Assembly (NCBI GenBank): GCA_039208735.1
Contig: JBCCQY010000003.1
Coordinates: 64,001-128,000, forward strand
Source: Myxococcota bacterium
GTDB taxonomy: Bacteria; Myxococcota_A; UBA796; GCA-2862545
DNA: 64,000 nucleotides
Reading direction: 5' to 3'
Shown here: positions 55,721 through 64,000 of the stretch, piece after piece
Layout: every line of letters starts with the position of its first letter
How positions within the stretch are numbered: the stretch's first letter is position 1
Translations under genes and position numbers: made by a program
Notes under the pieces: model-generated
The model's input: the letters and a program-made list of their open reading frames with translations, nothing else
What the model was told of the DNA's origin: nothing
Databases searched by the model: none

Positions 55721-56850
55721 CCCAGCCATTTGATGTTCTCGTCGTGGGCGCCCGTTGCGCGGGTGCCACCACCGCCCTGCACTACGCACGACAGGGCCGC
55801 CGAGTGTTGCTCGTCGACCGTGCGCGGCTTGGATCCGACACCTTGTCCACCCACGCCCTGATGCGTGCGGGCGTCCAAGCGCTCGTGCAGCTGGGGGTGG
55901 AACCGACGCTTCGAGCGCGGGGAACCCCCGTGGTTCGCCACACCACGATTCATTACGGCCGGGAGGCCCCGATCGAAGTTGATATCGTCCCCAAACACGG
56001 CGTCCAGGGCTTGCTAGCGCCGCGTCGCACGGTTCTTGACCGCGTGCTCGTCGAAGCCGCGGTGGACGCCGGGGTGGAGGTTCGATTTGGAACCTCGCTG
56101 CATGCCGTGACCCACGAGGATCACGGTCGCGTCAATGGCGCGGTGCTGCATTGTCGCGGCGTTCGGGAGACCGTGCGGGCGCGTCTGGTCGTGGGGGCCG
56201 ATGGCCGTCGATCCACGGTGGCTGAGCAGGTCGGGGCTCGCACATTGCTGCAGAGTCCGCGCGGAACGTCCAATGCCTACGCCTATGTCTCGGGGTTGCC
56301 CCAAGACACCTACGAGTGGACCTACGATGCGGCAGCTTCCTCCGGTATCATTCCGACAAACGAGGGGTTGGCGTGTGTGTTCGTCTGTGGTGCTCCAAAG
56401 AACGTACAGTCGCGGCTCGCGGCGGACCCAGTGAAAGGGTGGCAACAACTCCTCCGGAGAGCCCACCCCGACGTCGCTGAACGGGTGTTTGCGGGCCATC
56501 GCGAGACCCCGGTGTATCGATTCTCGGGAGCTGTGGGTCACCTCAAGCAGGCCGCAGGGCCTGGCTGGGCCCTGGTCGGTGACGCCGGCTACTTCAAGGA
56601 TCCGCTGACCGCCCATGGCATCACCGATGCGTTGCGGGATGCTGCGCTCCTCGCGTCGGCTACGGACGCTCGAGGCGAGGTGGGGCCGTCGTATGCCGAA
56701 TGCAGGGATACGCTCGCTCGCCCCTTTCTCGCGATTACCGATGCCTTGGCCCGACATGATTGGGACCTCGAGCGCGTTCAATGTCTCCACCAGGCCCTTC
56801 ATGACGAAATGAAGCGGGAACGTTCGTGGTTGTTGGCCCAGGCCGCGTGA
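55717..56850 (+). CDS. FAD-dependent oxidoreductase
   Basis: VVGARCAG, GADGRRS, GWALVGDAG. Confidence 0.9.
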   Translation: MTQPFDVLVVGARCAGATTALHYARQGRRVLLVDRARLGSDTLSTHALMRAGVQALVQLGVEPTLRARGTPVVRHTTIHYGREAPIEVDIVPKHGVQGLLAPRRTVLDRVLVEAAVDAGVEVRFGTSLHAVTHEDHGRVNGAVLHCRGVRETVRARLVVGADGRRSTVAEQVGARTLLQSPRGTSNAYAYVSGLPQDTYEWTYDAAASSGIIPTNEGLACVFVCGAPKNVQSRLAADPVKGWQQLLRRAHPDVAERVFAGHRETPVYRFSGAVGHLKQAAGPGWALVGDAGYFKDPLTAHGITDALRDAALLASATDARGEVGPSYAECRDTLARPFLAITDALARHDWDLERVQCLHQALHDEMKRERSWLLAQAA

Positions 56851-56878
56851 GCCGGAGCCCCCAAGATACAGCGAGGCC

Positions 56879-57940
56879 ATGAAGGTCGATGTCGCGATCG
56901 TTGGTGGGGGGCTTTCCGGCTTGGGTGTGGCGATGGGCCTCCACGAGCGCGGAGGCGACCTGCTGGTCCTTGAGGCCCGCCCCCGACTCGGCGGTCGCAT
57001 GCTTGCCATCGAAGGGCCCCGCGGAGGGCGGTTCGATTTGGGGCCGGCCTGGCTCTGGCCTCACCAAACCCGACTTCGAGCCTTGGCGAACCGGTTTGGC
57101 ATCGCGACCTTCGATCAGCATGTGCACGGGACCACGGTGTTTGAGAATCCGCAGGGAGTGGTGCGACGGGACCTGACGTTGGCCCCGATGGCCGGTTCGT
57201 GGCGCCTCGACGGCGGCTATGGTCGCCTTATTGACGCCGTGGCATCGACCCTTGATCCCGCAAGGATCTGGATCGATGCGTTGGTCGAGCGGGTCCGACA
57301 ACATGGCGACCGCGTTGCCCTCGACCTGGCAGATGGGCGTTCGGTCAACGCTCGCCGCGTGGTCTTCGCGTTACCGCCTCGCCTCGTGGCAGCGCTCCCA
57401 TTCGAACCGTCGCTGTCCCCAGAGTTCAAGACGGCCTTGTCAGGGGTTGCCACCTGGATGGCTGCCTCGGCCAAGGCCATGGCCTTCTATGAAACGCCGT
57501 TTTGGCGCACAAAAGGTCTGTCTGGAGAAGCGATTTCCCATCGAGGACCGCTTGTCGAGATCCACGACGCCTCCACGCACGACGGAGTGGGGGCGGCTCT
57601 TTTCGGCTTCTTGGGCATTCCTCCCGCCGCTCGGCGAACCCATGCGGCCGACCTTCCAGCTGCGGTGCTCGCCCAGCTGTCGTCGTTGTTTGGTCCCGAG
57701 GCCGCCCAGGCGCTCGACGTGGTGGTGATGGACTGGGCGACGGAGCCACTGACGTCGACACCGCGCGACGTGTCCGAGGCGAGCCGTCCCGGGCACCCCA
57801 CCGTGGGGGTCTTGCCTTCCCCAGGGTCGAACTGGGACGACCGAATTGGGCTGGCGGGAGCTGAATGTGGCGCCGACGAACCTGGCTATGCAGAAGGAGC
57901 GTTGCAGGCTGCCGAAGTGGCGCTCGAACGGCTTAACTAA
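56879..57940 (+). CDS. flavin monoamine oxidase family protein
   Basis: GGGLSG, EARPRLGGR, DLGPAW, GYAEGA. Confidence 0.9.
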   Translation: MKVDVAIVGGGLSGLGVAMGLHERGGDLLVLEARPRLGGRMLAIEGPRGGRFDLGPAWLWPHQTRLRALANRFGIATFDQHVHGTTVFENPQGVVRRDLTLAPMAGSWRLDGGYGRLIDAVASTLDPARIWIDALVERVRQHGDRVALDLADGRSVNARRVVFALPPRLVAALPFEPSLSPEFKTALSGVATWMAASAKAMAFYETPFWRTKGLSGEAISHRGPLVEIHDASTHDGVGAALFGFLGIPPAARRTHAADLPAAVLAQLSSLFGPEAAQALDVVVMDWATEPLTSTPRDVSEASRPGHPTVGVLPSPGSNWDDRIGLAGAECGADEPGYAEGALQAAEVALERLN

Positions 57941-58079
57941 GGCTGGACCCTGCATTCAGCAGCGAGAGATCAGTCGGACGCGTCTTGCGCCCCCGCGAGC
58001 CGCACCGGGCAACTTGAGAAAACTGGCTGGGATGTGTCGAAACACGAAGCCGTCGGACGTCTTGTCGATGGAGGTGCTT

Positions 58080-58790
58080 ATGAAGCCCAACGATGTGGTG
58101 TCGCGAGCCGAGTGGCTCGAGGCTCGCAAGAAGTTGCTCGATGCAGAGAAGGCGCTCACTCGGGTTCGCGATGAGGTCTCGGCCCAACGGCGGGCGTTGC
58201 CCTGGGTGCCCGTGACCGAGGCGTATGCGTTTGAAGGACCGTCAGGACCCGCGGTCCTGGCCGATCTGTTCGGCGAATACAGCCAACTTGTGATCTACCA
58301 CTTTATGTTCGGTCCGGCGTGGGACCAAGGCTGCCCCAGCTGTTCGTTCTGGGCCGATGGCATCGAACGGCACGTCGTGCATCTTGCGGCTCGTGACGTT
58401 GCCGTGGCGCTGGTGTCCCGCGCGCCCCGGGACAAGCTCACCGCCTACGCGGCTCGGATGGGTTGGACGACCCCGTGGTACTCGTCATCCAAGTGTCGCT
58501 TCAATCAGGACTTTGGGGTGTCCTTCGACGAAGGAGATGACCGTGCCTACAACTTCGGAACGAGCACGTTCGGGGGTGATGAGGCACCTGGCGTGAGCAT
58601 CTTCGCGAAGGATGGAGAAGGCCGGGTGTTCCACACGTACTCCACGTACGCCCGAGGCCTCGACATGCTCAACACGGCCTACCACTTCCTGGACCTGGTC
58701 CCAAAGGGCAGAGATGAGCAGGATCTTCCCTGGTCCATGGCATGGCTGCGCCGGCGCGACCAGTACGACTCAGTCCCCGAAGCGTCGTAG
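58080..58790 (+). CDS. DUF899 thioredoxin-like protein
   Basis: RRALPWV, YHFMFGP, GCPSCS, HTYSTYARG, LDLVPKGRDE. Confidence 0.92.
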   Translation: MKPNDVVSRAEWLEARKKLLDAEKALTRVRDEVSAQRRALPWVPVTEAYAFEGPSGPAVLADLFGEYSQLVIYHFMFGPAWDQGCPSCSFWADGIERHVVHLAARDVAVALVSRAPRDKLTAYAARMGWTTPWYSSSKCRFNQDFGVSFDEGDDRAYNFGTSTFGGDEAPGVSIFAKDGEGRVFHTYSTYARGLDMLNTAYHFLDLVPKGRDEQDLPWSMAWLRRRDQYDSVPEAS

Positions 58791-58926
58791 GTCGTCCAGC
58801 CTTTTGCGTAAGGGTTTCTCCGCCTGCAAAGCGCGCCAAGGAATCACATCTCCGCTCGTCGCATGAAACGAAATCGGGCGGCCTTGCGCGCGCTCCCATT
58901 CCGCACGCAACAAACTAATTTCCTTT

Positions 58927-58972
58927 GGCGTAGCGCCGAAGGTTGATTCAGACCGGCCTTCGGCGTTGCGCC
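58927..58972 (+). other. 19-bp hairpin in the gap between convergent genes
   Basis: 58927-58945 pairs with 58954-58972; four G-U wobbles and no mismatches on the + strand. Confidence 0.6.
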
Positions 58973-59123
58973 TCGGGTTCGCACGATTTCCAAAGTATTT
59001 GTAGCGCAGCATCCGCTACTTCGCGGATCGACCCCTCCCCAACGACGTTTACTTTGTGGACCAACGACCCGAGAGGGCGACCCGATTCGCTCCAGGGTCT
59101 TCGGTTCGTCAATGCAAGCTGCA

Positions 59124-60392
59124 TCAGCGTTCCACCAGTTCAGGCAGGCTGCGACGACGGCCAGCGATCAGCACCACCAGGCCTACGAACGCCGAGACGA
59201 CGCCAAGGCTTGCCACCGACACGACCTCGAGCCATGCGGTGGCTCGGAGCCACGCGGGGCTTCCGAAGGCGGCCGCGCGAAGTCCGGAGGCCACCTCGGC
59301 GAGGCCTACCACCACGAGCAGCCCGGCAAAACAGGTGGACAACCCACCGAGTGCGGTGACTCCGAAACAGTGGACCGTTGACATGACGGTGAGGTTGAAG
59401 AGGCCCGAGAACAACTGGAGCAGCCCCAGTCGTCGCGTGACGGCAGGATCGAGCACCAAATCGGCTTCGGGCCACGCCCGTGGACCTACGGTCAGGGAGT
59501 CTCTGGCTTGGTCGAGATCATCGGCATCGATGGTTCCCGAGCCAGCCCAGCCGTCGACCCGGGCTCGCGCGGTGTCGGAGGCCATGGGGCGCAGCGCGTC
59601 GGCGAATGCCTCGGCGGAGGGATAGCGGTCGGCGGGCACCCGCTGGAGTGCCCGATGGATCACCGAGTGCAGCGGACCGTCTGGCATGGGCAACTCCCGA
59701 CGGTGCCCCTGGACGATATTGCGTTGGGTTTCAAAGTCGGTTTCGCCGCTGAACGGCCGATACCCGGCCACCATTTCAAACAGGACGGAGCCGAGACTGA
59801 ACACATCGGATCGCGCATCGACTTCGCCTGGATGCTCAACTTGTTCAGGGCTCATGTAGGGAATGGTGCCGAGCGTATGGGCGGCGCGCGTCACGAAGGA
59901 ATCCGCGACCTTCGCAATGCCGAAATCCAGGATCTTCACGTAGGGAGGATGCCCCGGCTCGGCATCCACGAGAAATAGGTTGGCCGGCTTTAGATCACGA
60001 TGGAACACTCGTGAACGGTGCGCGTGGGCCACGCCCGAAAGCACCTGGAGCAGAATGTCAGCGGCTGCGGTGGGCTCGAGCGGTCCTTGGGCGATGATCT
60101 GGGAAAGGTCGTGGCCTTCGAGGTGGTCCATGACCAGCGCGGCCACCCCTTGATCATAGAGGACGTCGGTCACATGCACCAACGCAGGGTGGCGGAGTCG
60201 TGCAAGGACCTGGCCCTCTTTCACGAATCGATCGCGGGCCAATGGATCCTGCTCATGCCCCGCGTGAAGCACCTTGAGCGCGTGCATGGTCTTGAGGACG
60301 CGATGACGAGCCCGGTATACGCTCGATGTGCCGCCTTTGCCCACCAGTGCTTCGATCGTGTAGGAACCGATCTCGGACCCTTCTTTGAGCAC
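59124..60392 (-). CDS. Ser/Thr protein kinase with C-terminal TM segments
   Basis: GKGG, ALK, HRDLKPAN, DFG, YMSPE. Confidence 0.95.
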   Translation of the reverse strand: MLKEGSEIGSYTIEALVGKGGTSSVYRARHRVLKTMHALKVLHAGHEQDPLARDRFVKEGQVLARLRHPALVHVTDVLYDQGVAALVMDHLEGHDLSQIIAQGPLEPTAAADILLQVLSGVAHAHRSRVFHRDLKPANLFLVDAEPGHPPYVKILDFGIAKVADSFVTRAAHTLGTIPYMSPEQVEHPGEVDARSDVFSLGSVLFEMVAGYRPFSGETDFETQRNIVQGHRRELPMPDGPLHSVIHRALQRVPADRYPSAEAFADALRPMASDTARARVDGWAGSGTIDADDLDQARDSLTVGPRAWPEADLVLDPAVTRRLGLLQLFSGLFNLTVMSTVHCFGVTALGGLSTCFAGLLVVVGLAEVASGLRAAAFGSPAWLRATAWLEVVSVASLGVVSAFVGLVVLIAGRRRSLPELVER

Positions 60393-60425
60393 GTGTCCTC
60401 CCCAGATGGGCTCGGGCGACATCGT

Positions 60426-61001
60426 CTAACGCGACTCGGGGCGCTCGGAGACGAGCTGCTCGAGCTGCGAACGGCGGGTCGCCGCGGCATCCGGTGAGGG
60501 GGCCCCTTCATCCACACGTCGCCACACGGTGTGCAGCCGTTCGTAGAGGGCCTGGGTGGTATCTAGCGAAAACCCTGTGAGAAGGTGTTTCTTGCCGCTG
60601 TGCAAGCGGATCAGGACCGCGAGGTGGCGGTTCTCGACGCTCGACACTTCATCCCAGGCGATTCGCTGCGAGCGAAGGCCTGGGGCCTGCAACAGTTGGG
60701 CTTGGGTGGGGGGAGTATCCAGCTCGTCGAGCCAGTCGACGCGAATGCCGCTTGGGTCGAGGCGGATACGACGATAGCGCCTCATCGCGTTGACATGGGG
60801 CGACCGCAGAGGGTCGACCGACATCATGAAGTAGATGGCCGCAACGAACAGAAACCCGAACGGTCCCAGTACGCAAGCCGCGAGGGCGAGAACGGCGAGG
60901 CCCGGCACGAACCGTGCCTGCACCCCAAACCCAGGTGTACGGACCTGGGCGAGCACTGCCCACACTTCCTGTTCGCCGTCGCTCGTATGGTGCTCTTCCA
61001 C
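60426..61001 (-). CDS. membrane protein with PH-like C-terminal domain
   Basis: TM hairpin then IAWDEVSSVE pattern. Confidence 0.6.
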   Translation of the reverse strand: MEEHHTSDGEQEVWAVLAQVRTPGFGVQARFVPGLAVLALAACVLGPFGFLFVAAIYFMMSVDPLRSPHVNAMRRYRRIRLDPSGIRVDWLDELDTPPTQAQLLQAPGLRSQRIAWDEVSSVENRHLAVLIRLHSGKKHLLTGFSLDTTQALYERLHTVWRRVDEGAPSPDAAATRRSQLEQLVSERPESR

Positions 61002-61018
61002 GACCCCTCGTTTTCGAT

Positions 61019-61873
61019 CTACCCCGCATGCGTCGCCATCTCGACAAGCCAATCCGTCACTGCGCGGACACGGGGCACTTGCACGAGGTCGGGGTGCGTA
61101 ACGAGCCAGACCGGGTCGTCGTAGACCGGAGCGGCGGCATTGAGCGGCACCAGCTCGGGGTAGGGCTCCGCCAAGATGTCAGGCAGCAGCGCCATCCCCA
61201 GCCCAGCGACACAGGCCTGCACGATCGCCGACAGCTCGGTCGATCGCATGACCGGCATGATGCGGGGGGCTTCCTCGACCCAAGGGTGTCGGGCTAGCAA
61301 CAGCAGGGCCTCTTTGCCTTCGAGGTCGGTGAGTTCTTCGTTGAGCCCCCGCCCCTCCAACCAGGACCGCGCGGCGTACAGACGAGACTGCACGGTCAAC
61401 AGGCGCCGGGCGATCAGGGTGGGGTCCGTGGGACGACCGATGCGCAACGCCAGATCGGCTTCCCCCCGGCTGATGTCGACGTTGTGCGGTGTACACCAGA
61501 GATCGACCCGCAGTTCAGGGTACTGCGCGCGCAAGTCGGGCAGCCTTGGGGCGATCATCTGGCTTGCCACCGTCTCGATGGTGGAGATTCGAACCCGTCC
61601 TACCGGGCGGTCGCTCTCGCCCCCAGCAAGTCGGATGACGTCGGTGGCTGCACCTTCCGCTCGCTCCGCCGCGGGCACCATTCGCCGCCCCGCGGGCGTG
61701 GCGACCCACCCTCGCGACCCTCGCACGAACAACTTGGTCCTTAGGCCTTCTTCCAAGGCGGCGATGCGACGGCCCACCGTGGTCGGATCAACCCGCAAGG
61801 ACCGGCCTGCGGCCACGAGGGTGCCTTCGCGATGCACTGCGAGGAAGTACCTGAGGTCCGACCAGTCGTACAT
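61019..61873 (-). CDS. LysR family regulator
   Basis: MYDWSDLRYFLAV...TTVGRRIAALE...LFVR; EADLALR. Confidence 0.93.
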   Translation of the reverse strand: MYDWSDLRYFLAVHREGTLVAAGRSLRVDPTTVGRRIAALEEGLRTKLFVRGSRGWVATPAGRRMVPAAERAEGAATDVIRLAGGESDRPVGRVRISTIETVASQMIAPRLPDLRAQYPELRVDLWCTPHNVDISRGEADLALRIGRPTDPTLIARRLLTVQSRLYAARSWLEGRGLNEELTDLEGKEALLLLARHPWVEEAPRIMPVMRSTELSAIVQACVAGLGMALLPDILAEPYPELVPLNAAAPVYDDPVWLVTHPDLVQVPRVRAVTDWLVEMATHAG

Positions 61874-61898
61874 GTCTGCAGTGTAGCGGTTCTGTGTC

Positions 61899-61912
61899 CT
61901 GCACATCTGCAG
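61899..61912. promoter_or_regulatory. dyad CTGCA-N4-TGCAG, candidate LysR operator
   Basis: palindrome between the divergent LysR gene and a small ORF; TCTGCAGTG also repeated at 61875. Confidence 0.35.
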
Positions 61913-61984
61913 TGGAAGGCTGCGAATCTGGCCCTGGTAGTGGCCCAAAAAGCAGGTGATTCCAGGAACAACCGAGGAGGTCTT

Positions 61985-62191
61985 GTGACTTGGTTCGCCA
62001 TGGATGATCTGTTCGAGAACGCCACCCTCGATTTCGAGGTCACGCCCGAAGAGGTGCTCGCTGACTTGCTCTACCACGGCGAAGGGCGGAGACCCCTCGA
62101 CGAACTGGAAGATTCGCTCGAGGCACCGGTCGTCGACGTAGAGCGCCTCCCCAAGTCGAATGGGCGCGAGTGGTGGACCCGCTTCTTCTAA
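61985..62191 (+). CDS. small acidic protein
   Basis: GAGGAGG RBS before GTG; GC-rich third codon positions; ends WWTRFF. Confidence 0.6.
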   Translation: MTWFAMDDLFENATLDFEVTPEEVLADLLYHGEGRRPLDELEDSLEAPVVDVERLPKSNGREWWTRFF

Positions 62192-62197
62192 GCACGT

Positions 62198-62242
62198 GGA
62201 GCGGGGCCCCGAGGTTGTACCCGACCCCGGGGCCAAGGCTCC
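62198..62242 (-). terminator. 3' GC-rich hairpin (terminator or stabilising stem)
   Basis: GGCCCCGGGGU/ACCUCGGGGCC stem plus GGAGC/GCUCC; no U-tract. Confidence 0.45.
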
Positions 62243-62583
62243 GCGATTTCAGTGACCCACGACGTTGAATCGCCCGCATCAGGTTCAGTGGCCGACGTCT
62301 TACTGCTAGACCATGGCTCCATAGTTTTGGGGGAGCCAGGAAGAATTGCACCTCCGTCTTCGGCCGGAGGAGCGGGAGAACTCGAGAGGGTCACCACGGA
62401 AAATGCATCAGTCTCGGAGGATTCGGTTTAGGTGTCGTCGTCGACCACGGCTTTACCGCTGCGTCTGCCAAGTTCCGCCAACCCTGCCCAAGAGATTGCA
62501 GGGTGTAGGATTCGAACCTACACGTCGACGAATTCAGTCTGAAATCCTGAGCTTCAGCTTGCCTCCTGGACCCCAAGGGGTCC
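62198..62583 (-). ncRNA. structured RNA with two circularly permuted tRNA-like domains (YrlA/Y-RNA-like architecture)
   Basis: two T arms, each followed by a perfect 7-bp loop-closed acceptor stem and then a D arm; long closing helices; wobble pairs favour the minus strand; exact ends uncertain. Confidence 0.85.
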
Positions 62584-62898
62584 GAATCTGGCTTAACCGG
62601 TCAGGTGTTGAGTTCCGCCCGCATGGCCGCCACCCGCGATGCCCAAGTGGCTCGTTCGGCGTGGCAATGGCGTACGGTCTGCTCGAGATCAGCGCCTTCG
62701 AGCTGAAGAAGAGTCGAGGCGAAGTTCGCCTTGCGACGAAAGAACCCATCGAGCCCCTGACGGATCCATCCCAGTTTGCTCCATCGGAAAGGAGTAACCT
62801 TGAGTATTGATGAAATCGTGGCGATGGTGCACCTCGATAGTTACATTAGGTTTAGTAGAGAAAGGCCTGATTGAACCATAAAAATTGGGCAATCTGCT

Positions 62899-63711
62899 TT
62901 ACCTACTACGACCTTGGGGCCCTTGCAAGGTGCGCCGAACGAACGACACAATCGCATCTCGTGTGATGTTGGGCCGCTCTCGGGGTGGACTGTGGCCACA
63001 ATGGGCCAGCCTCAATTGGTCTACCGGGCCCGATGCGTGCTTCACGATTGCGTCGCACTGCGCCATGGTGCCAAACGCATCGTCGTACCCCTGAATCAGC
63101 AACGTCGGCACGTCCAGACGAGCCACCTCTTCGGTCATCGTCCAGCTGCGGAACGAAGGCGAGAGCCAAACCGTGGACCAGGCGTCGAACGTGCGATCGA
63201 TGTTGCGATGGTACCGCGCGAGGCGTTCTCGGAACTTGGAGTCAGGAAAGCTCTCGCGAAGGGCCGCGATGGCGGTGATGCAGATGTCTTCCACAAAGAC
63301 GTGCGGCGCGATGGCCACCACCCCTTCCACGTTGGGTTGTTGCGGGTCGCTCGCATAAAGCAGGGCGATCGATGCGCCATCGCTATGCCCGATCAGAATG
63401 CGGGGCCGTTTTCGAAGGGCCGGGTGGGTGTCAAAAAGCACCGACAGCAGAGCGGGAAGCTCCTCTTCGGCCGCTTCGTTGAGGAATCTCGCGGTTCGGG
63501 GCCCGGGCAGTTCGTCTGACGTGCCGTAGCCCTGTCGGCTGTAGATCAGCGCAGGGGATTCGCAGTCGTTGGCGATCTGGGTGGGCCAGTCTCGCCAGTG
63601 GAGGACGGAACCGAGCCCTTGGTGCAGGAAGAGCAGGAGGGGCCCGGGAGCATCGGGGTGGACGATCGCAACCTCAAGGTCGACGCCCGCCACCGACCAC
63701 CGTTGCGTCAT
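62899..63711 (-). CDS. alpha/beta hydrolase
   Basis: FLHQGLGS, GHSDGASIAL, QGYDD, CGHSP; ATGA overlap with upstream gene. Confidence 0.92.
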   Translation of the reverse strand: MTQRWSVAGVDLEVAIVHPDAPGPLLLFLHQGLGSVLHWRDWPTQIANDCESPALIYSRQGYGTSDELPGPRTARFLNEAAEEELPALLSVLFDTHPALRKRPRILIGHSDGASIALLYASDPQQPNVEGVVAIAPHVFVEDICITAIAALRESFPDSKFRERLARYHRNIDRTFDAWSTVWLSPSFRSWTMTEEVARLDVPTLLIQGYDDAFGTMAQCDAIVKHASGPVDQLRLAHCGHSPPRERPNITRDAIVSFVRRTLQGPQGRSR

Positions 63712-64000
63712 CCCTCGAACAACCAGCGAAAGACCTTGGCCCCCATCTCTTGTCGCTTGACTTCGAGATCGTTGGCCCGAGAGCGGGCGCGTTTGACCGC
63801 ATTTCGCAGCGCTTCCAGCCGTTCGAGCAGGGCTTCCTTGCGCGGCGTGGGCAGGGCCCCGGACAAGTGGGTGGTGTGCCAGTGCCCAATGATGACGTCT
63901 TCGGTGATCAGTTGGGTCTGGGCGGGAATCGCGTGATCGTCCTTCACCACCGCATCGTAGAGCACGATGGGGCGCTGGACCTTTTTGGTCTTGTGCGTGA
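63708..64000 (-). CDS. conserved hypothetical protein, C-terminal part (DUF7873-like by recollection)
   Basis: frame open to the window edge: KTKKVQRPIVLY...PAQTQLITEDVIIGHW.T..LSGALP..RK..LLERLE.L..AVK.AR..AN. Confidence 0.75.
   Translation of the reverse strand, partial: THKTKKVQRPIVLYDAVVKDDHAIPAQTQLITEDVIIGHWHTTHLSGALPTPRKEALLERLEALRNAVKRARSRANDLEVKRQEMGAKVFRWLFEG

Follow-up and report, generated by a model that had tools for sequence, protein, structure and literature searches.

A conserved, permuted tRNA-Leu mimic predicted from sequence at the head of an RNA linked to DUF7873

To our knowledge, few bacterial tRNA mimics are known. The tmRNA has no D stem and carries a G3-U70 pair as its alanine mark, and it possesses a tag reading frame, pseudoknots and the protein partner SmpB. 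Two-piece tmRNA is the product of a permuted gene, has a connector helix at the position of a long variable arm, is thought to be processed via RNase P and is charged without an anticodon, as described in PMC3985003. YrlA (RF02553), encoded within 4 kb of Ro60, places its T arm 5′ of its D arm, has an acceptor closed by a loop and lacks an anticodon loop; it is opened at the anticodon stem, which its strands extend (10.1101/312249). In the same source, the closed form is regarded as the usual one for YrlAs, and dimeric tRNA transcripts are proposed as their origin. The 7-bp YrlA of M. smegmatis is reported to be cut by RNase P and to gain CCA (PMC4201824). Permuted tRNA genes are also described in algae and archaea, where the 3′ half comes first, the acceptor is opened by end-processing, the junctions lie at 20/21, 37/38, 50/51 and 59/60 with BHB motifs, and the products are ligated and decode (PMC3978253).

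The window, that is, the whole stretch of 64,000 nucleotides analysed here, contains on its minus strand a candidate two-headed, DUF7873-linked non-coding RNA of ~330 nt (62242..62566; the ends are approximate and were placed from conserved flanks). Its first permuted domain, termed head 1, begins with the entry strand (62524..62531) of an 8-bp helix at the variable-arm position, assigned from folding and homolog comparison. Two unpaired bases lead to the T arm (62505..62521), recognised in the sequence and the alignment, followed by a 7-bp acceptor stem (62481..62504; 3′ strand 62504-62498, 5′ strand 62487-62481) that is closed by a 10-nt loop (62497-62488) with A73 as its first base (62497). 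U8-G9 and a D arm of the long-arm tRNA-Leu type (62461..62478; G13-A22, A14, A15, G18G19, A20a) come next, and then A26 and a stub hairpin of 5 bp with a 3-nt loop in place of the anticodon arm (62447..62459). One base after the stub lies the exit strand of the variable-arm helix (62438..62445), likewise placed by folding and homolog comparison. All of the elements listed for head 1 in the initial annotation were found where it had put them, on the minus strand from 62531 to 62438. A strict permuted-tRNA pattern (T arm, acceptor 3′ strand, loop, acceptor 5′ strand, U8, D arm) matched once in the 9.4-Mb genome, at head 1, and a relaxed pattern matched 32 times, corresponding to 0.0085 per 2.5 kb. 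No tRNA was called in the window by ARAGORN, and an Rfam search over 56000-64000 at E<=10 returned four chance-level matches, none at the RNA.

Head 1 shares with YrlA the order of its arms, the loop-closed acceptor and the lack of an anticodon loop, but differs from it in the exit through the variable arm, the retained stub, the flanking 6-nt repeats, the second head and the position next to DUF7873 instead of Ro60. The difference in exit point from YrlA, which leaves via the anticodon stem in the description of 10.1101/312249, had been pointed out in the initial annotation and stands; the DUF7873 linkage, the 6-nt repeats and the tmRNA precedent for leaving by the variable arm go beyond that annotation. 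Two-piece tmRNA has in common with head 1 the helix at the long-variable-arm position and the permuted gene (PMC3985003); head 1 has no conserved reading frame, however, and contains a Leu-type D arm and A3-U70 in place of G3-U70. The closest likeness in individual positions is to class II tRNA-Leu, which head 1 matches in A73, A15:U48, G18G19, A20a, G13-A22 and C2-G71, and its variable-helix spacing (one unpaired base before, two after) is that of three of the four called host tRNA-Leu genes. Unlike in class II tRNA-Leu, the halves of head 1 are swapped, the acceptor is closed, the anticodon arm is reduced to a stub and the variable arm runs on into the rest of the RNA. In contrast to the ligated, decoding tRNAs of algae and archaea, for which no variable-arm junction is among those described in PMC3978253, head 1 has no anticodon. 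Judged by its sequence features, head 1 is thus a member of neither YrlA nor tmRNA.

Folded by itself, the 98-nt module has z = -2.9, and the variable-arm helix, the T arm, the acceptor and the stub all appear in its minimum-energy structure; the D stem is missing from it, and the tRNA-like fold lies 1 kcal/mol above the minimum. The probability of the variable-arm helix was 0.98 for the module alone versus ~0 in a 411-nt fold (62190-62600), in which the D stem was likewise lost, so that single-sequence thermodynamics alone is no proof of the model. The local hairpin that had been named beforehand as a sign against the model also has a probability of ~0 in the long fold, and was not seen in the homolog alignment.

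The structural model was therefore examined in homologs, of which 154 distinct heads were assembled by a scan that fixed a 7-base acceptor register and left other stem lengths uncounted: 53 with the long-arm Leu D arm (long heads), 31 with a second D-arm type (short heads) and 70 others, mostly corresponding to the second head. Applied to 35 heads, RNAalifold recovered the T, acceptor and D stems, and 12 of the 15 pairs in these stems changed on both sides, with compensatory changes at all seven head 1 acceptor pairs. The variable-arm helix was not recovered in these 35 heads because stub length shifts the register, and for this helix a stub-anchored pairing test was used instead, in which the exit strand was placed from the stub alone and pairs were counted against a six-base segment that stops two bases short of the T stem. 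A stub was present in 44 of the 53 long heads (43 distinct), and the nine without a parsed stub were excluded. With their own strands, 29 of 43 heads formed 6/6 pairs (mean 5.5), versus 4.2% (mean 3.7) when strands were swapped between homologs, although near-copies among the homolog rows cause the counts to overstate independence. The proposal that a long variable-arm helix carries the entry and exit strands is supported by this comparison. The helix exceeded 0.5 in 39 of 51 module-only folds and in 24 of 51 long-context folds.

The stub itself varies widely among the long heads, with stems of 3-8 bp and loops of 3-12 nt (mostly four bases, none seven, with no shared sequence), and two phage copies have a 5-nt linker in its place. 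The claimed absence of an anticodon loop was thus borne out in homologs, in which the stub is a variable hairpin, never parsed with a 7-nt loop, or absent. The acceptor loop ranges from 6 to 66 nt, with a conserved first base. Taken together, the sequence and its homologs indicate that head 1 is a real, conserved, permuted tRNA-Leu mimic that is unable to read a codon.

Opening at the variable arm is not the only geometry in the family. At one locus (L044), a long-Leu head between the same flanks keeps its variable hairpin closed and is opened at the anticodon stem, as are most of the 31 short-type heads. An RNA-first pattern scan yielded 27 loci, 11 of which have DUF7873 within 1.5 kb; the remaining loci are mostly ordinary tandem tRNAs or arrays of permuted heads (L049, L050, L053, L055 and L056; also L064, L065, L069 and L072). 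Leu-type heads in these arrays have closed variable arms by inspection and are open at the anticodon stem, and TROVE was found within a few kb of the arrays in all five array genomes tested. The YrlA scores of these Ro60-adjacent arrays (32-61 bits) all fall under the 69-bit Rfam cut-off, indicating that the cut-off of RF02553 is strict. In the sample, the variable-arm opening accompanied DUF7873, or else the contig end is too near to tell (L057).

The DUF7873 gene overlaps the edge of the window (3′ part, 63708..64000, minus strand; 252 aa) and runs on to G000:C3:128466; its PF25283 match has an E value of 1e-28 for the window fragment and 1.5e-85 for the whole protein. The RNA starts 1.2 kb downstream of this gene on the same strand, and an alpha/beta hydrolase gene lies between them here (62899..63711, minus strand), which is not a conserved part of the cassette. 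The RNA is followed by a G+C-rich hairpin (62205..62234, minus strand), seen in the sequence as a possible 3′ end signal; the terminator scan gave 0 matches, this hairpin not being scored as a terminator, and the Sigma-70 promoter scan also gave 0. A short hairpin directly adjoining the 5′ side of the RNA and, farther upstream, a 7-base motif were noticed by eye in 62570-62600. The motif is shared with L004, where it lies ahead of the RNA, and with L006, where it lies ahead of the DUF7873 gene, and is a possible promoter element.

Of 61 related genomes, seven, including the source genome, gave a DUF7873 match, with head 1 at all seven loci. Genome, viral and metagenome scans yielded 122 distinct full-length DUF7873 loci, 104 of them with at least 500 nt downstream; these were recovered with an alignment query, a single-protein query having given no confirmed match. 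A head was detected by pattern within 2.5 kb at 87 of the 104 loci, versus 0.0085 expected per 2.5 kb from the source-genome background. The head lies on the strand of the DUF7873 gene at 93 of 96 loci and on the opposite strand at three, and the first head follows the stop codon by 46-340 nt in most loci. In L004, L008 and L097 the RNA is inverted and converges on the DUF7873 gene. No third gene is shared by more than five of the 96 head-bearing loci, and TROVE is absent from the recurrent neighbours of DUF7873 loci. The cassette is spread over several phyla and also occurs in phages: the DUF7873 protein matches 75 phage records, and in the two that were opened DUF7873 lies inside a tRNA array, and both heads occupy the unannotated gap behind it. 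Cultured carriers are Actinomadura, Pseudofrankia and phages of Gordonia and Arthrobacter, and those inspected have the short-type head. The closest named homologs of DUF7873 are titled Myxococcota or Myxococcales, among other labels. Weak partial PF25283 matches at L086-L092, L095 and L096, all from one family of the phylum, are perhaps a shorter relative of DUF7873.

The predicted model of DUF7873 (pLDDT 92.6) consists of long helices and a long beta hairpin, and the protein has conserved Lys and Arg residues. The best structural match is DIP1984 of Corynebacterium diphtheriae (PDB 3kdq; Z 9.1, 148 residues aligned, rmsd 6.9 Å, 12% identity), in which the likeness is mostly of long helices. 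No known RNA-binding fold was matched by the model, nothing significant was returned by Foldseek and a profile search, and an Atlas search gave DUF7873 clusters and one unnamed cluster at 0.83. In the literature searched, no mention of DUF7873 and no description of the RNA of its cassette was found. The RNA and DUF7873 thus apparently constitute an unpublished RNA-protein cassette.

Which amino acid, if any, would head 1 accept? In E. coli, A73, A15-U48, G18G19 and A20a matter for LeuRS, G73 is an antideterminant, and tRNA-Leu without its anticodon and variable arms is still charged provided that A73 and the D/T contacts are present, according to PMC9976931. The statement that bacterial LeuRS largely ignores the anticodon is thus right for E. 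coli, as documented in that source. Head 1 of the source genome carries A73, A15:U48, G18G19 and A20a. Among the 53 long heads, N73 is A in 46, G in five and U in two; among the 31 short heads it is A in 23, U in six and G in two, so that A73 is missing from 15 of the 84 Leu-type heads. By comparison, N73 is U in 40 of the 70 other heads. A15:U48 is present in 53 of 53 long heads, although the search pattern fixed A15 and U48 for nine of them, and A20a is part of the definition of the long-head class and hence circular. G-U occurs at 3:70 in one of the 53 long heads. CCA is encoded in seven of the 53 and not at head 1 of the source genome, which is normal for a host that encodes CCA in only 6 of 51 parsed tRNA genes. 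Among the viral matches listed for the long-type D-arm signature, 66 of 128 were called tRNA by ARAGORN, 60 of the 66 as Leu; for the second D-arm type, 117 of the 131 viral matches listed were called, 113 of the 117 as Leu in a short form of 73-79 nt. Comparison with homologs supports the Leu-type identity of head 1, through A15:U48, the D arm that marks tRNA-Leu among the matches listed (60/66) and A73 in 46 of 53.

On the DUF7873 tree, head type changes 6 times versus 23 when shuffled, in a quick tree in which 76 of 112 proteins have a classified head and kin are not independent; independent origins of the two head types are not proved by this tree. Short tRNA-Leu was found in three of five short-head genomes, all three Actinomycetota, and its pattern in none of five long-head genomes, so head type partly follows the tRNA-Leu type of the host. 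The slot of head 1 thus appears to have been filled from two different tRNA-Leu types, for which selection for leucine identity is an easier explanation than inheritance alone. The Leu-type features of head 1 suggest that it may be charged with leucine for a job other than decoding.

Several further observations concern tRNA genes and tRNA-like elements. Phages commonly carry short (73-79 nt) tRNA-Leu genes that lack a long variable arm (L177-L300), and such genes were also seen in the three Actinomycetota genomes (loci L435, L437 and L440-L442). The 62 of 128 listed viral long-Leu D-arm matches that were not called tRNA (within L301-L424) have a Leu-type 5′ half that enters other sequence; some resemble intron-split tRNA-Leu genes, and many do not. 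In the source genome (assembly 92.7% complete), ARAGORN called tRNA-Leu CAG, UAA, GAG and CAA, and UAG was not called. The same genome, which gave no TROVE match, contains three RtcB-like loci and a separate YrlA-like permuted tRNA mimic (L425:1501-1609, equal to G000:C1:17928-18036, plus strand; 49.5 bits versus the 69-bit cut-off) with a 6-bp acceptor and a 3-nt loop. At G000:C65:40859-41382 lies a cluster of four odd tRNA genes (Arg, His, one uncalled and one called Thr), of which some have irregular anticodon arms; the ORF behind them resembles an HNH nuclease by eye, and the last tRNA of this cluster has 19 T-arm bases in common with head 1.

Head 1 is flanked on its entry side by about four copies of a 6-nt repeat, A-R-N-Y-U-S (62532..62560, minus strand; with a 2-nt insertion here), and by the 5′ strand of a closing helix (62561..62566, minus strand), which pairs with 62416-62421 and is complementary in homologs. 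The exit flank (62405..62437, minus strand) contains degenerate repeats, the 3′ strand of the closing helix (62421-62416) and one further repeat. The closing helix is the top covarying column pair, albeit a weak one (0.26), and is absent from the single-sequence fold. Upstream of head 1 in 84 heads, U-N-A pairs number 211 at distance 6 versus 11.7 shuffled, 135 at distance 12 and 68 at distance 18; the unit is also found downstream, and the longest run is upstream. In 49 of the 84 heads, no Watson-Crick covariation was found between the entry-side repeats and the exit strand apart from the closing helix, and a rod formed by mutual pairing of the repeats was rejected on this ground. A peptide-coding role was also considered for the repeats, which translate as alternating basic and hydrophobic residues in the manner of a Lys/Arg-Leu peptide. 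Against it argue the invariant or nearly invariant A at repeat position 1 in the alignment, the implied use of AGR, which makes up 7.6% of Arg codons in linked genes, and insertions that break the 6-nt period in the source genome, L008 and L097. The repeats are more plausibly protein-binding sites.

The second permuted tRNA mimic, head 2 (62290..62365, minus strand), sits 160 nt downstream of head 1, and is open at the anticodon stem, i.e. in YrlA-like geometry, with a 7-bp acceptor and an 11-nt loop. Homologs of head 2 score 33-42 bits on the YrlA model RF02553, below the 69-bit cut-off. Neither head matched RF02553 in the source genome, and head 1 gave no YrlA match in the window or at six long-type homolog loci. 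A match to GNCGAAN0-1G overlaps the anticodon stem of head 2 here; it is absent in L005 and L006, and none was seen by inspection before head 1.

These data are best explained, tentatively and with a rough probability of 0.45, by a mobile cassette composed of DUF7873 and a two-headed tRNA-mimic RNA, whose leucine-type head 1 would be cut, leucylated and used as a decoy or tether. The main rival, which we consider somewhat unlikely, holds that, as in Salmonella YrlA, the acceptor loop remains uncut, that the heads serve only as stable L-shaped docking sites on a DUF7873 scaffold and that the Leu features are leftovers of tandem tRNA-Leu genes. It agrees with the closed state and the dimeric-tRNA origin proposed for YrlAs (10.1101/312249), with the variable N73, with the CCA encoded in 7 of 53 long heads and with the Leu-type permuted heads in Ro60-adjacent YrlA arrays, from which it follows that the Leu features may reflect an origin from tRNA-Leu genes. 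It accounts less well for a compensated 7-bp acceptor (in a scan of fixed 7-base register), a head-specific N73 bias and the filling of the same slot by two different tRNA-Leu types, and the 7-bp YrlA of M. smegmatis is cut and gains CCA according to PMC4201824. More doubtful is an undescribed aminoacylated ribonucleoprotein built on a three-piece RNA in which both heads are cut and leucine is presented on head 1 from a DUF7873-coated arm, as a donor in a non-ribosomal reaction or for tmRNA-style entry into the ribosome. Long-arm and short-arm tRNA-Leu would then represent two or more separate recruitments of leucine identity, since LeuRS disregards both the anticodon arm and the variable arm, so that either is available as an attachment point.

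The other explanations fare worse. A tmRNA-like particle, in which a charged head enters the ribosome, DUF7873 replaces the anticodon arm like SmpB and a Lys/Arg-Leu peptide is translated from the repeats, would fit the exit point and permuted order of two-piece tmRNA (PMC3985003) and the alternating residues encoded by the repeats. It is improbable in view of the codon bias and period-breaking insertions described above, the position of the longest repeat run upstream of the head rather than downstream, the full D arm and stub that the head keeps, the genome's own tmRNA (ARAGORN finds one, only on C127) and the absence of an SmpB-like match for DUF7873 among the matches listed. An ordinary Y RNA of Ro60 (Rsr), with the Ro60 gene located elsewhere, is very improbable: the T-acceptor-D order, the RF02553 scores of head 2 homologs and a TROVE match in 7 of 18 carrier genomes favour it, but no TROVE match was found in the source genome (assembly 92.7% complete) or in 11 of the 18 carriers, TROVE lies on another contig or 3.5 Mb off in three genomes with comparable positions, head 1 is without a YrlA match in the window and at six long-type homolog loci, and the phage copies adjoin DUF7873. 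It is highly improbable that the locus is a DNA relic in which integration left behind halves of tRNA genes, or a structure within the 3′ UTR of the DUF7873 mRNA. The usual placement of the first head shortly after the stop codon and on the same strand (93 versus 3 opposite) would agree with an mRNA element, but the compensatory changes in the acceptor, T and D stems (12/15 pairs) and in the variable-arm helix speak against a relic, and the opposite-strand RNA in L004, L008 and L097, together with the whole gene that intervenes here, points to a separate transcript. There is next to no likelihood that this is a permuted gene spliced into a tRNA-Leu(UAG) missed by ARAGORN, a reading suggested by the absent UAG call and by the permuted tRNA genes of algae and archaea (PMC3978253). 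It is already contradicted by the absent anticodon loop: the stub loop is 3 nt here, homolog loops of 3-12 nt include none of 7 and share no sequence, and two phage copies have no stub. Moreover, the four junction types described in PMC3978253 lie elsewhere and have BHB motifs, and the assembly is incomplete.

Under the preferred reading of a mobile cassette with a leucine-type head, the permuted cloverleaf, the variable-arm exit, the absence of an anticodon, the Leu-type elbow and the association with DUF7873 are supported by the sequence comparisons, and all steps after folding are ones that we infer. The RNA would be transcribed independently or together with DUF7873. By analogy with M. smegmatis YrlA and permuted tmRNA, RNase P is predicted to cut 5′ of 62487 at the 7-bp acceptor; the acceptor loop would then be trimmed to A73 and CCA added, with the cut pieces remaining paired. 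As LeuRS recognises A73 and the D/T elbow rather than the anticodon, it could then charge head 1. DUF7873 subunits would bind the 6-nt repeats beside head 1, giving a leucylated particle that is unable to decode and offers no anticodon loop for cutting. Such a particle would most likely engage host tRNA-handling machinery (LeuRS, EF-Tu or tRNA-targeting enzymes) when phages infect or translation is under stress, serving as a decoy or tether.

What does the family add to the mimics described so far? Among those compared here, tmRNA is charged with alanine, and YrlA has not been reported to be charged. In the DUF7873-linked family, the tRNA-Leu body is opened at the variable arm in some members and at the anticodon stem in others, which provides a natural test of the tolerance of LeuRS, RNase P and the CCA enzyme for a rewired tRNA. 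In addition, DUF7873 gains a candidate RNA partner and a putative binding motif, and an unannotated gap within phage tRNA arrays is filled by a two-headed RNA.
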